Below, piece by piece: positions 1 to 31,739 of a stretch of DNA of 64,000 nucleotides; within the stretch, counting starts at the first letter, position 1; the number at the start of each line of letters is the position of its first letter. The stretch lies in assembly GCA_964367745.1 (NCBI GenBank), contig CAYIYK010000004.1, forward strand, positions 449 to 64,448, written 5' to 3'. The notes beneath the pieces were generated by a model. That model was given only the letters and a program-made list of their open reading frames with translations, had not been told where the DNA came from and did not search any database. The position numbers were made by a program, and so were the translations under genes. Origin of the DNA: an uncultured Candidatus Saccharibacteria bacterium. Lineage in GTDB: Bacteria; Patescibacteriota; Minisyncoccia; Phycocordibacterales; PALSA-1337.

Positions 1-214
1 ACCTTTTCCGAACTAGTAAAAAACGCGAGCCTGTACTATAAATTTGCTCTTGATAGTGAAAAGAGGGATTTGGTTTCAACCATATTTACCGAACTCATCT
101 TTCATGACGGACACCTTGTAGAATATAAGGCAAAAGATGGTTTTGACGCTCTTTTGAAGAGGTCTGGGCTAACTGGCTCCGGCGGCAGGGATCGAACCTG
201 CGACCAATCGCTTA

Positions 215-781
215 CGTATCCTCCACTATTACTAATGGTACGGACTATATCATCTCCATAAGCTAACTTTGTGTTTTTCGCTTTTAGGGGTGAGGGGCTT
301 CCCATCTTTTTAAAGATAGTACTCCCTTTCGGGATAGTCTCTACACCTTCAACTGATTAATTAAAATCAGAAGCTTGGCTCGGTATTGCCCTAATTTTTT
401 AATGTTAGGGTTTCACCGAATTCACCTCATTTTCGACCAGAATTTCTTCTGGAAGCTGCTGTATGCCAGCACCGACTTCTCTATGACAATTCGCACAAAG
501 TAATACACATTTATCTAATTCAGCTTTAACTTTTTCCCAGGATCTCGTATAACCTTTATCACCTATACCAAATTCTTTTTTATCGCTATTGATATGATGG
601 AGTTCTAAAGCTCCTGCAAACCTGTTATAACCACATAATAAACACTTATTACCCTTGTACTCAATAGCCATCGCTTTAATCTTACGTCGTCTTTTTGTGA
701 CGGCTCTTATTAAAGCTTCTCTTCGGTCTGCATACTTTCTTCTATCTGACATAATTTTAATTATATCAAATAGAATCGTTT
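215..781 (-). mobile_element. Group I self-splicing intron (about 567 nt) in the tRNA anticodon loop, carrying an HNH endonuclease ORF
   Basis: The 5' exon ends in U and the intron ends in G (omega-G) directly before the 3' exon. The region 3' of the ORF (reverse complement of 215..404) contains AGACTA, a TCCCGAAAGGGA hairpin and GATATAGTCC. These resemble the P7 5' strand, P8 and the P7 3' strand (AAGATATAGTC) of group I cores. A possible P1 guide GCAG lies about 30 nt into the intron. Confidence 0.55.
405..752 (-). CDS. HNH homing endonuclease (intron-encoded)
   Basis: 115-aa ORF with CxxC...HH..N...CxxC..H pattern (CLLCGYNRF...LELHHINSDK...CANCHREV), typical of a zinc-binding HNH nuclease. 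It is in the same orientation as, and nested inside, the tRNA intron. Confidence 0.8.
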   Translation of the reverse strand: MSDRRKYADRREALIRAVTKRRRKIKAMAIEYKGNKCLLCGYNRFAGALELHHINSDKKEFGIGDKGYTRSWEKVKAELDKCVLLCANCHREVGAGIQQLPEEILVENEVNSVKP

Positions 782-845
782 ACAGGCGACTGCTCTACCG
801 CTGAGCTACACCGGAATATATTCTTTTACGGTAATAGAAATGATT

Positions 846-15873: not shown

Positions 15874-18800
15874 ATGAGTCGTTTTATACATCTACATACA
15901 CATAGCCATTACTCTCTGCTTAATGCTTTACCCAAAATCGACGATCTATTGGACGAAGCAAAAAAGAACAATATGCCTGCCCTAGCACTTACAGATGCAG
16001 GAAACCTATATGGAGCAATAGAATTCTATAAGACTGCCAAGAAAAAAGGAGTCAAGCCTATTATGGGTGTAGATTTCTACGTTGCAGTGAGAACAAGGAA
16101 AGACATGCAAGCTGGAATAGATAATAGACGCACACGTTTAGTTCTACTAGCGAAGAATCACGATGGTTTTAAAAATCTTATCAAACTTGTTACCGATTCA
16201 TATTTTGAAGGATTTTACTATAAACCACGTATAGATAAAGAACTGATAGAAAAATACAATAAAGACCTCATTTGTATAGCTCCTTCTTTTTCTAGTGATA
16301 TTTCAAACGCTTTGAAAAATAAAAATGTAGAAAAAGCAAAAGAATGTATTGATTTTTATAAAAAAGTATATGGTAATGAAAACTTCTTTATTGAGATAAC
16401 CCGACACCCAGAAATACAAGGACATGAGGGACTTATGCAACAACTCATAAAACTCTCAAAAGAAACTAATACTCAGATAGTAGCCGCGCACGATGTTTAC
16501 TATATAAATCAAGACGATAAATCTGCTAGAGATATGCTTCAACTAGTAAATACTTCTGGCGATATGTCTGATAAGAATACATCAGGATCTATGGAAGGTT
16601 CTGATGAAGAAAACTTTTCTTTTATAAACGAAGAGAGAGCAATAGAGCTTTTCCACGATATTCCAGAAGCGATTGAAAATACAGTAAAGATAGCAGATAT
16701 GTGCAATGTAGAGATTGTCTTAGGTAAATGGTATTTCCCAGATTTCAAAGTAGCTAGTGGACTAACTCATGATGAAGAATTGAGAAGAATTGCATATGAA
16801 GGTATTCCAAAACGTGGATTGGAATTAACAAAAGAAGTGACTGATAGATTGGATTATGAATTGAAAGTTATTGGAGATAAAGGTTATGCCCAATATTTTC
16901 TTGTAGTGTCAGACCTACTCCGATATGCTCATGAAAATAAAATCCTTACAAATATTCGAGGATCGGTTGCGGGTTCACTTACTACTTATGTAACAAGAAT
17001 TACAAATGTGGATCCTTTGGCTTACAAGCTTCCATTCGAAAGATTCCTAAACCCAGAAAGACCGTCAGCTCCCGACATCGACATGGACTTTGCCGACAAT
17101 CGTCGCGACGAAGTTATTGATTATGCAAGAAAAAAGTATGGTTACGACAAAGTAGCACAGATAGGTACATTCGGTACTATGATGGCAAAAGGTGCAGTAA
17201 GAGATATAGCGAGGGCTATGGGTTTTCCATATGATACTGCAGATAGAATATCGAAATTAATTCCTCTAGGTGCGCAAGGTTTCCCTATGACTATCGATAA
17301 AGCAATAGCGGAAGTACCGGAATTAAAACAAGCATACGAAAGCGAGCCTGATACAAAAAAAATTATAGACATGGCAAAGAAAATCGAAGGTTGTGCAAGG
17401 CACATCTCCGTACACGCTGCTGGTGTTGTAATTTCTCCTGATGCACTTACAGAGCATGTACCACTACAGTACGATACAAAGAATAAAGAAGATGCAAATG
17501 GCAATCCAATAAGGAAAATTATCACTCAGTACGATATGCATGCAGTTGGTGAAGACGGAGTAGGATTGTTGAAATTTGACTTCCTTGGAATCAAAAACCT
17601 ATCGATCTTAGCCGATGCAGTAGATCGCGTAAAGAAAATCGAAGGAATTGATATTGATATAGAAAATATTCCGAGAGATGATAGAAAAACTTTTGAAATG
17701 CTAGCTCGAGGTGAGACTATAGGTCTTTTCCAATTGAATGGAAGTGGAATGACAAAGTTTCTTGTAGAACTAAAACCTTCAAGAATACATGACATAAATG
17801 CCATGGTGGCACTATATCGACCTGGACCTCTAGAATCTATTCCACAATATATAGAAAGAAAACATGATGAATCAAAGGTTGAATATCTAGATCCAAGAAT
17901 GAAAGATATCCTAGATATGTCTTATGGAGTTATCACATACCAAGACGACGTTATGATGATCGCTATAAAACTTGCTGGATATTCTTGGCTTGAAGCAGAC
18001 AAACTTCGAAAAGCTATGGGTAAAAAAATTCCAAAAGAAATGGAAGAACAAAAAGAAAAGCTACTGACCGGTTTCGTAAAACACGGTATGGGTAAAAAGA
18101 ATGCAAACACTCTTTGGAAACTTATCGAGCCTTTCGCTGCTTATGGATTCAACAAAGCACATGCTGCAAGTTATGGATTGGTTGCATATCAGACTTCATA
18201 TATGAAAGCCAATTTCCCTGCTATATATATGTCTGCGGTACTTACAGCTGAATCTGGCGATGTAGAGAAAATTGCTGAAATAATTGCAGAGTGTAAAAGA
18301 ATGAGTATTCCAATTCTTCCACCTGATATAAATGAAAGTTTCAGTCAGTTTACAGTAGTAAAAGGTGGGGGAACTATTTCTTCACAAGCCCGAGGATTGT
18401 CTGAGCGTAGCGACAGCGAAGCGAGTTCCGCAGGGCGAAGTGAGGATATAGTTCCTCCGACCGAAACACAACCAATCAAAGATACTATTCGTTTTGGACT
18501 AGTAACAATTAAAAACTTTGGACAAGGAATATCTACTGCGATAATCGACGAAAGAAAGAAAAATGGTCCATTCAAGTCTCTAACTGATTTCCTTGATCGA
18601 GTAAAAGATAAAAATCTAAATAAAAAGTCTCTTGAAGCTTTGATAAAAGCTGGAGCAATGGATCGATTTGGTATCGACCGTGGTGTTCTCCTTGGAAACC
18701 TAGAGACCCTTCTCGCACACAATAAAGAAAAGTTAAAGCAATCGGATAATCAAGATTCATTATTTGGTCTGATGTCGGATACATCTTCTATACCAAGTCT

Positions 18801-31663: not shown

Positions 31664-31739
31664 TGGAGCCACCTCTCGGATTCGAACCGAGGACCTTCAC
31701 TTTACAAAAGTGTTGCTCTACCAACTGAGCTAAGGTGGC
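31664..31739 (-). tRNA. tRNA-Thr(UGU)
   Basis: Reverse complement: GCCACCT-TA-GCTC-AGTTGGTA-GAGC-A-ACACT-TTTGTAA-AGTGA-AGGTC-CTCGG-TTCGAAT-CCGAG-AGGTGGC-T-CCA. Canonical cloverleaf with anticodon TGT. Confidence 0.9.

Follow-up and report, generated by a model that had tools for sequence, protein, structure and literature searches.

A tRNA-Asn(GUU) gene split by a subgroup IA-like group I intron with an HNH endonuclease gene in its P1 loop

We analysed a 64,000-nucleotide stretch of DNA from an uncultured Candidatus Saccharibacteria bacterium (contig CAYIYK010000004.1; hereafter the window), near the start of which a tRNA-Asn(GUU) gene is divided by a group I intron that itself contains an open reading frame (ORF) for a small HNH endonuclease, all on the minus strand. 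Exon 1 (815..782, 34 nt, UCCGGUGUAGCUCAGCGGUAGAGCAGUCGCCUGU) supplies tRNA positions 1-35 and ends in CCUGU (C32, U33, G34, U35 being its last four nucleotides), and exon 2 (214..174, 41 nt, UAAGCGAUUGGUCGCAGGUUCGAUCCCUGCCGCCGGAGCCA) supplies positions 36-76, starting UAAGCG with U36 and A37 and carrying the 3' halves of the stems, the discriminator G73 and an encoded CCA at 176-174. Between them, and so between anticodon positions 35 and 36, lies the intron (781..215, 567 nt). A first-pass annotation of this DNA had proposed that the two halves join into a cloverleaf, and both its coordinates and the 567-nt gap hold: ARAGORN calls the joined 75-mer tRNA-Asn(GUU), with a 7-bp acceptor stem, a D arm, a 5-bp anticodon stem, a T arm, G73 and CCA. 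The intron-tolerant search suggested alongside that proposal agrees, since ARAGORN with its intron option on returns the genomic locus as tRNA-Asn (gtt) i(35,567). By default neither ARAGORN nor the Rfam tRNA model finds the split gene, the sole match in the window being a tRNA-Thr at 31664-31739. The group I splice-site rule that the annotation had invoked is likewise borne out, with U782 as the -1 nucleotide at the 5' splice site and G215 as the intron-terminal omega-G, and a terminal G is present in 64/64 sequences with a uniformly defined junction. From the evidence set out below we consider it very probable that this is a single tRNA-Asn(GUU) gene with a subgroup IA intron at 35/36 and the HNH gene in L1, the loop of P1, and that splicing, a leaderless HNH message and homing belong to one account.

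The Rfam covariance model Intron_gpI (RF00028), another check put forward at first pass, matches 522..222 over model positions 1-253 with 64.3 bits (E 5e-14), against a curated gathering score of 50 bits. To examine the ribozyme across the family we aligned 52 homologous segments, bounded by the guide sequence and the terminal G, from which RNAalifold recovered P2, P3, P4, P5, P6/P6a, P7.1, P7.2 and P8. Pairs were counted explicitly with P7 added as a pseudoknot and with 500 shuffles plus slid registers as controls; P9 was left out of the count because the MAFFT columns are out of register there. Standard pairs fill 95.9% of the cells (shuffled 73.7%, slid registers at most 47.8%), the covariation score is 0.58 (shuffled 0.16, slid registers at most 0.13) and double, compensatory changes occur in 38 of the 53 pairs, the observed values being reached by none of the 500 shuffles. 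Covariation across the 52 homologues for P2-P8 is very strong.

In the window, P2 is the hairpin CCAGAA-GAAA-UUCUGG (452..437), which lies inside the ORF and shows compensatory changes in 5/7 pairs with 99.5% of cells paired. Alignment and window helix mapping place the 5' strand of P3 at 429-425 and its 3' strand at 295-291, P4 at 419-414/385-380, and P8 at 290-287/257-254 with an extension at 282-279/264-261. P5 (410-409/390-389) contains the stop codon of the ORF (407-405), P6 (379-377/347-345) continues into P6a (373-367/356-350), all seven pairs of which have compensatory changes, and P9 is a hairpin CCAUUA-GUAA-UAGUGG (238..223) placed from the sequence and the Rfam alignment. The predicted guanosine-binding helix P7 would pair GACUA (339-335) with UAGUC (247-243) in a pseudoknot with P3, and its sequence is identical in 52/52 aligned homologues; in a divergent relative, L080, it reads GGCCA/UGGUC, one compensatory U-A to C-G change. 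Two extra helices follow, P7.1 (UCCC-GAAA-GGGA, 334-331/326-323, sequence UCCCGAAAGGGA) with compensatory changes in 4/4 pairs and P7.2 (319-313/308-302) with them in 6/6 counted pairs, and these two helices, set between P7 and the returning 3' strand of P3, are the hallmark of subgroup IA, to which we assign the intron. The core elements picked out at first pass need one minor correction: AGACUA...UAGUC is P7, whereas UCCCGAAAGGGA, described there as 'P8-like', is P7.1. Five introns of the family (L018, L026, L054, L059 and L080) lack P7.1 and P7.2 and run from GACUA directly into GAUACCG; together with the changed P7 of L080 this means that the family has more than one core architecture.

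The internal guide sequence (IGS), GCAG at 459..456, is the 3' strand of P1 and pairs with exon nucleotides C32-U35, so that P1 is CUGU/GCAG with a U782.G459 wobble at the splice site. The core 4 bp of P1 cannot covary, because their exon side is invariant. GCAG(C) just upstream of P2 is invariant in nearly all homologues, lying 6-7 nt from the splice site in ORF-less introns, and among the homologues intron nucleotide +1 covaries with the nucleotide 5' of the IGS (G-C with A-U), a position occupied by an A/A mismatch in the window. In the ORF-less relatives L018, L059 and L060, P1 consists of CUGU plus one intron nucleotide, paired to N-GCAG over a 5-nt loop and followed by P2. The window equivalents of GCAG(C) and of the covarying P2 hairpin occupy 459-437, inside the 3' end of the ORF, and therefore the ORF occupies the loop of P1, which in the window is roughly 320 nt long. 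The guide falls within codons Q-Q-L, and the last 55 nt of the ORF (459-405, 18 codons) double as the IGS, P2, the 5' strand of P3, P4 and P5. As a separate observation, the first 8 nt of the intron (AAACGAUU, 781-774) are similar to the 9 nt with which exon 2 begins (UAAGCGAUU, 214-206), so that a 4-bp pseudo-anticodon stem would remain open to exon 1 even when the intron is present; the likeness may have been left behind by the insertion event, or may reflect an alternative pairing in competition with P1.

The ORF itself (752..405) encodes 115 aa in the same orientation as the tRNA. The zinc-finger HNH endonuclease reported there at first pass proves to have an intact motif (CxxC...HH...N...CxNCH) and to match PHROG HNH families, strongly so for phrog_2255 (E 3.8e-29); the suggested comparison with the Pfam HNH profile (PF01844) passes marginally, at 22.3 bits against a threshold of 21.4. 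The protein has a strongly basic N-terminus, a zinc motif CxxC...CxNCH and a catalytic motif HH...N...H, and across 57 homologues the residues C37-x2-C40, H52-H53 and C86-x-N-C89-H90 reach a conservation of at least 98%. A sequence search of the PDB gave only weak matches (E ~0.3-0.4), to the LtrA endonuclease domain and McrA, and an NCBIfam search with the ORF nothing but a spurious sub-threshold match.

Within the P1 loop, 7 nt before the ATG of the HNH gene, lies a promoter-like extended -10 motif, TGATATAAT (768..760). We compiled this region from the 56 introns with a recognisable M-x-D-x-R-K-Y ORF start. A perfect TATAAT is present in 40 of them and at least 5/6 positions match in 48, with the TGn extension in 38 of those 48; the spacing from hexamer to ATG is 6-10 nt with a mode of 6, and a 4-mer resembling a Shine-Dalgarno (SD) sequence occurs in only one of the 56. 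The stretch between the splice site and the motif varies freely in sequence and length. The motif is missing where the intron has no ORF, and of the four free-standing copies described below two (L018 and L038) have kept a -10-like hexamer with their ORF. These patterns suggest that TGATATAAT is an intron-internal promoter giving a leaderless HNH mRNA. An intron endonuclease of phage T4 is expressed from its own promoter inside the intron.

The same arrangement is found at other gene starts in the window, where a -10-like hexamer lies 5-8 nt before the first ATG in 7/34 long genes compared with 4/275 internal ATGs (1.5%; Fisher p = 2.6e-5), while SD-like motifs are not enriched at gene starts across the 64 kb. 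Examples, often with the TG extension, are the starts at 15874(+), 10337(-), 47121(-), 49757(-), 31619(-), 22129(-) and 53985(+). Because -10 hexamers are enriched at starts and SD-like motifs are not, leaderless starts look like a normal mode of expression in this organism, one that the HNH gene would share. A side observation from the same survey is that DnaE probably starts at ATG 15874 (TGTTATAAT-N6-ATG) rather than at GTG 15847.

We examined the distribution of the element in a homologue scan that took one genome per species and gave at least 273 HNH-relative loci, of which 80 were kept. The relatives occur in at least 273 species genomes, nearly all of them metagenome-assembled genomes (MAGs) of Patescibacteria. 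Counting the window with the 80 loci, 64/81 sequences show a uniform Asn 35/36 pattern, defined as exon 1 ending CTGT, an intron ending in G, exon 2 starting TAA and a discriminator G; at least some of the 17 that fail it are truncated contigs or have variant D-arms. The MAGs with the closest loci are labelled Paceibacteria, Parcubacteria, 'Saccharibacteria' or Patescibacteria group, and the window itself, at 35% GC, carries housekeeping genes and codes for giant LamG/PG-binding proteins. Judged by gene content and by these labels, the chromosomal context is like that of the candidate phyla radiation (CPR) or Patescibacteria, as had been supposed. Seven contigs bearing the element (L068, L073, L078, L024, L025, L069 and L075) belong to MAGs labelled Eubacteriales, Blastocatellia, Deltaproteobacteria, Simkania, Gammaproteobacteria or Elusimicrobiaceae; in L068, L073 and L078 there is no -10 motif and the ORF starts 17-25 nt into the intron, L078 having an SD-like AGAGG. 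These loci could be either mis-binned or a real spread with a different expression signal.

An empty site is provided by L164 (JACCDT011973111.1, 1271-5190), a close syntenic relative in which the gene order of the window (exonuclease, HisRS, TruB, Schlafen/bPH protein, DUF167, tRNA-Asn) is kept, with protein identities of 84, 81, 67, 79 and 67%, respectively. Its tRNA-Asn is uninterrupted, is identical to the spliced tRNA of the window at positions 1-73 and has the anticodon GTT, which bears out the Asn anticodon proposed for the junction; the 3' CCA is encoded in the window gene and not in that of L164. The uninterrupted allele fixes the insertion point at 35/36 and shows the intron to be polymorphic among related genomes. 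The uninterrupted 30-nt joined junction occurs, exactly, in at least 92 metagenome contigs, L164 among them. Intron-less alleles are present in relatives at a divergence similar to that of intron-bearing ones, and hence intron gain or loss continues.

The HNH gene, for its part, is by sequence comparison under strong purifying selection. Relative to the window copy the ratio of nonsynonymous to synonymous substitution (dN/dS) is 0.04-0.16, with synonymous sites saturated in most comparisons; among the 57 introns with an identifiable ORF start nearly all have an intact ORF, the exact protein was found again in 10 independent metagenome contigs, and sample SRR28520274 carries the identical HNH gene. 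At least 12 intron-bearing loci have DUF167 upstream of tRNA-Asn, and in these DUF167 is 41-74% and HNH 70-88% identical to the window copy. This conserved synteny, and the greater conservation of HNH than of DUF167, indicate long vertical co-inheritance under strong constraint.

These observations bear on several other ways of reading the locus. If the intron boundaries were shifted by two nucleotides the gene would be a tRNA-Thr, reading Thr(CGU) in the window, an ambiguity that is documented in the main text of PMC13011429, where ARAGORN and tFind often make the Thr call; position 35/36 is confirmed there by sequencing of spliced homologues. ARAGORN run with introns likewise calls Thr(UGU or CGU) i(33/34) for ~15 of our 80 homologous loci, but it calls the window locus Asn i(35,567). 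The discriminator of the split gene is G73, as expected for tRNA-Asn from the identity elements of the Escherichia coli AsnRS, whereas the window's real tRNA-Thr has U73. Given further that the shifted intron would end in A217, breaking the omega-G rule, and that uninterrupted alleles identical over positions 1-73 (L164 among them) read GTT, we rejected the Thr(CGU) reading, which has next to no chance of being correct. A decaying pseudogene, whose intron no longer splices while a second, intact tRNA-Asn elsewhere serves the cell, would be compatible with the 64 kb of genome covered and with a short P1 containing one mismatch. Every core helix is nevertheless intact in the window and under covariation constraint in the family, the exons are identical to functional-looking uninterrupted alleles, and the exact HNH protein recurs among independent contigs; on these grounds it too was rejected, as very improbable. 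Less easily dismissed, though still unlikely, is the idea that TGnTATAAT acts at the RNA level, as an A/U-rich translation enhancer or a structure in L1, with the ORF translated from the pre-tRNA or the excised intron. The region is AT-rich and our scan tool found no -35/-10 pair; yet in most lineages the motif agrees with the extended -10 consensus at every base, whereas the L1 around it varies in sequence and length, its spacing to the ATG peaks at 6 nt, the usual distance from -10 hexamer to transcription start, 55 of the 56 introns have no SD-like motif, other gene starts of the window show a significant enrichment of the arrangement, and the motif travels with the ORF and not with the ribozyme.

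A further alternative accepts splicing and asks whether HNH is kept not, or not only, for homing but because it benefits the intron or its host, perhaps through activity on other nucleic acids or in a maturase-like role, helping to bring the 5' splice site and the guide together across the ~320-nt P1 loop. Low dN/dS, saturated synonymous sites and conserved synteny amount to a long persistence without decay that a simple homing cycle does not predict, and the very basic N-terminus and the near-universal integrity of the ORF count on the same side. We know of no HNH maturase, however, and the invariant catalytic and zinc residues argue that nuclease activity has been retained. Introns without an internal ORF pass the Rfam threshold (L038 and L060), and 11 of the 15 described in the main text of PMC13011429 are also without one; abundant intron-less targets are interspersed among intron-bearing relatives, and the selection can thus be put down to ongoing homing; and the phage homologues, free-standing beside tRNA-Asn, behave like classic homing endonuclease genes. 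We regard a non-homing role as distinctly unlikely. The account of a spliced tRNA-Asn with a leaderless, homing HNH gene has points against it all the same. The Pfam HNH score barely exceeds its threshold, P1 in the window stops at 4 bp, the fifth pair of many homologues being an A/A mismatch here, and the invariant P7 gives no covariation in the main alignment. The promoter scan, which requires a -35 hexamer, did not list the extended -10 site, and splicing, the transcription start and endonuclease activity at this locus are all things that we infer. Saturated synonymous divergence and conserved synteny point to long vertical inheritance, under which the classical homing cycle predicts decay, so that something other than homing may account for the retention of HNH; and, with 64 kb of the genome covered, a second, intron-less tRNA-Asn copy may exist elsewhere.

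The spliced and homing element that we favour would work as follows. The pre-tRNA would be transcribed from the tRNA promoter, GCAG (459-456) would pair with the exon CUGU to present the U.G wobble at the 5' splice site, the P3-P9 core would fold, and free guanosine would attack that site. The terminal G215 would then replace the guanosine and the exons would be ligated to give a functional tRNA-Asn, a course of events demonstrated in vitro for a homologue (PMC13011429). Transcription of HNH would begin separately, from TGATATAAT and at or 1-2 nt from the AUG, and if ribosomes translate only this leaderless transcript, folding of the pre-tRNA, including the IGS and the P2-P5 segments within the last 55 nt of the ORF, would be undisturbed. 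The endonuclease would cut intron-less tRNA-Asn alleles, and repair would copy the intron in. We infer homing because of the presence and absence of the intron at a syntenic site, the abundance of uninterrupted targets, the purifying selection on the gene and the phage homologues beside tRNA-Asn. As to history, the HNH lineage is tied to tRNA-Asn genes, and its closest relatives in phages, free-standing next to intron-less tRNA-Asn, fit an endonuclease-gene-invasion or collaborative-homing route to a mobile intron.

Homologues of the HNH protein occur in 419 phage records (tblastn against phage genomes). In all nine phage lineages sampled the homologue lies within a tRNA array, and in six of the nine it directly adjoins an intron-less tRNA-Asn(GUU), the hosts of these six being Bacillus, Prevotella, Klebsiella, Erwinia and Vibrio. 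The tRNA-Asn lies 69-125 nt upstream of the HNH gene in Bacillus phages Bastille (L179) and BCU4 (L181), Prevotella phage Lak-C1 (L180) and Klebsiella phage KP13-7 (L184), and 4-58 nt downstream in Erwinia phage Kaldavass (L183, 1516-1590) and Vibrio phage PG216 (L186, 1474-1548), where it is unannotated in the GenBank records; both distances are ranges over the phages named. These homologues beside tRNA-Asn show 49-62% identity. Adjacency in 6/9 lineages is far above chance, with an estimated binomial p of ~6e-5 at ~20 tRNA species per array, a value that would be less extreme if related phages were pooled. The Bastille and BCU4 proteins were seen to have an extra N-terminal CxxC...CxxC module, and both come with SD sequences.

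Four Patescibacteria loci show a further arrangement, in which a free-standing HNH homologue adjoins a tRNA-Asn whose intron is ORF-less and 186-269 nt long. The HNH gene lies immediately upstream of the tRNA in L018 (2995-3605), L060 (3001-3657) and L038 (3001-3680), the 3' end of the ORF overlapping the first tRNA bases in L038, and 59 nt downstream in L059 (2211-2845). The ORF-less introns of L038 and L060 pass the Rfam threshold. In a neighbour-joining tree of HNH, which is weakly supported (bootstrap 33 for the Patescibacteria clade), the phage copies form a basal grade and the four free-standing Patescibacteria copies are scattered within the intron-encoded clade. These free-standing configurations match the models of endonuclease-gene invasion and collaborative homing reviewed in PMC3984707. 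We put forward tentatively, as a reading to which we give slightly less than even credence, that the HNH lineage is a tRNA-Asn-specific homing family spanning phages and Patescibacteria and preserving three stages of a composite intron: free-standing beside an intron-less tRNA-Asn in phages, free-standing beside an ORF-less intron in L018, L038, L059 and L060, and, in the window as in most of the genomes (at least 273), embedded within the loop of P1, this last form having its own extended -10 promoter and leaderless mRNA.

The first-pass annotation had suggested that an intron-bearing tRNA-Asn with an HNH ORF, or one in a CPR-like genome, might be new; this suggestion of novelty does not stand, the class of tRNA-Asn introns with HNH genes in Patescibacteria being already present in Williams 2020 (doi 10.1101/2020.01.27.920355) and in the main text of Nakagawa et al. 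(bioRxiv 2025; mSystems 2026; PMC13011429). Williams listed 'Asn.4Ug' among 21 kinds of intron-split bacterial tRNAs. Nakagawa et al., in that main text, report 15 tRNA-Asn(GUU) introns at 35/36 from 95 complete Patescibacteria genomes, classed as subgroup IA and encoding HNH (PF01844) in 4/15, and precise in vitro self-splicing of one such intron from GCA_016700035.1. The window locus is a further instance of this class. It has in common with the Asn.4Ug introns, as described there, the host gene, the insertion site, U at -1, the terminal G, an IA core with P7.1 and P7.2 and, probably, the host phylum, and like the four endonuclease-bearing members it exceeds 500 nt and carries an HNH ORF; default tRNA finders miss both, and nothing essential differs. 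Keyword searches of the PMC13011429 main text found no mention of an internal promoter, a leaderless transcript or free-standing homologues, nor was mention found there of an ORF in L1 overlapping IGS-P5, phage homologues or a syntenic empty site. The placement in L1, the internal leaderless promoter, the selection on and spread of the HNH gene and its phage and free-standing relatives thus go beyond the literature we found, and are the only parts of wider interest.

Other known systems are alike in part. The cyanobacterial tRNA-fMet intron (I-Ssp6803I) is also a group I intron in an anticodon loop with a homing gene and is present or absent among relatives, and the tRNA-Arg/LAGLIDADG and Bacteroidota tRNA-Leu/HNH introns (PMC13011429, main text) are likewise endonuclease-bearing bacterial tRNA introns. 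As far as that text describes them, the fMet, Arg and Leu introns differ in the tRNA, in the position in the loop (33/34, 34/35 or 36/37), in being mostly of subgroup IC and in their PD-(D/E)XK or LAGLIDADG enzymes. The phage elements I-HmuI and I-HmuII (SPO1/SP82), I-BasI, I-TevIII and I-PfoP3I (PMC3428280) combine subgroup IA with a small HNH protein as the window intron does, but lie in protein-coding genes (DNA polymerase, nrdB) with their ORFs in other loops, and their proteins are larger, with separate DNA-binding modules; similarity to the window protein was not detected in the PDB search. The HNH homologues free-standing beside tRNA-Asn resemble F-CphI/psbA, mobE/I-TevIII and T4 SegB (PMC3984707, PMC2790892, PMC2330249), and an endonuclease gene beside its target is the configuration proposed as a precursor of composite mobile introns (PMC3984707). 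Unlike in the collaborative-homing systems, the endonuclease gene of the window is already inside the intron; SegB, of the T4 tRNA cluster, is a GIY-YIG enzyme and the window protein an HNH enzyme.

Two neighbouring features of the window were recorded. Next but one to the tRNA, a minus-strand gene at 1260-2231 fuses bPH_2 to Schlafen AlbA_2 and is 79% conserved in L164. From 28098 to 62800, also on the minus strand, runs a series of genes for very large proteins (730-2559 aa), predicted to be secreted or located at the surface, with Laminin_G_3 (concanavalin-like), fn3 and beta-helix domains, most with a C-terminal PG_binding_1.

Because default finders miss the split tRNA-Asn, the genome would score as lacking it, which would distort estimates of completeness, a point on annotation already made in Williams 2020 and the main text of PMC13011429. 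Complete genomes had yielded four endonuclease-bearing cases; with at least 273 species genomes, the element together with its endonuclease is far more widely spread than that. An old, vertically co-inherited and constrained HNH gene sits awkwardly with the limited mobility concluded in the PMC13011429 main text, and is awkward also for the classical cycle of gain, decay and loss. With free-standing homologues in phages and a clean empty site, the family offers a tractable system for the fusion of an endonuclease and a ribozyme into one mobile element, and it bears as well on how translation and ribozyme folding may be kept apart in a bacterium without Shine-Dalgarno-led initiation.

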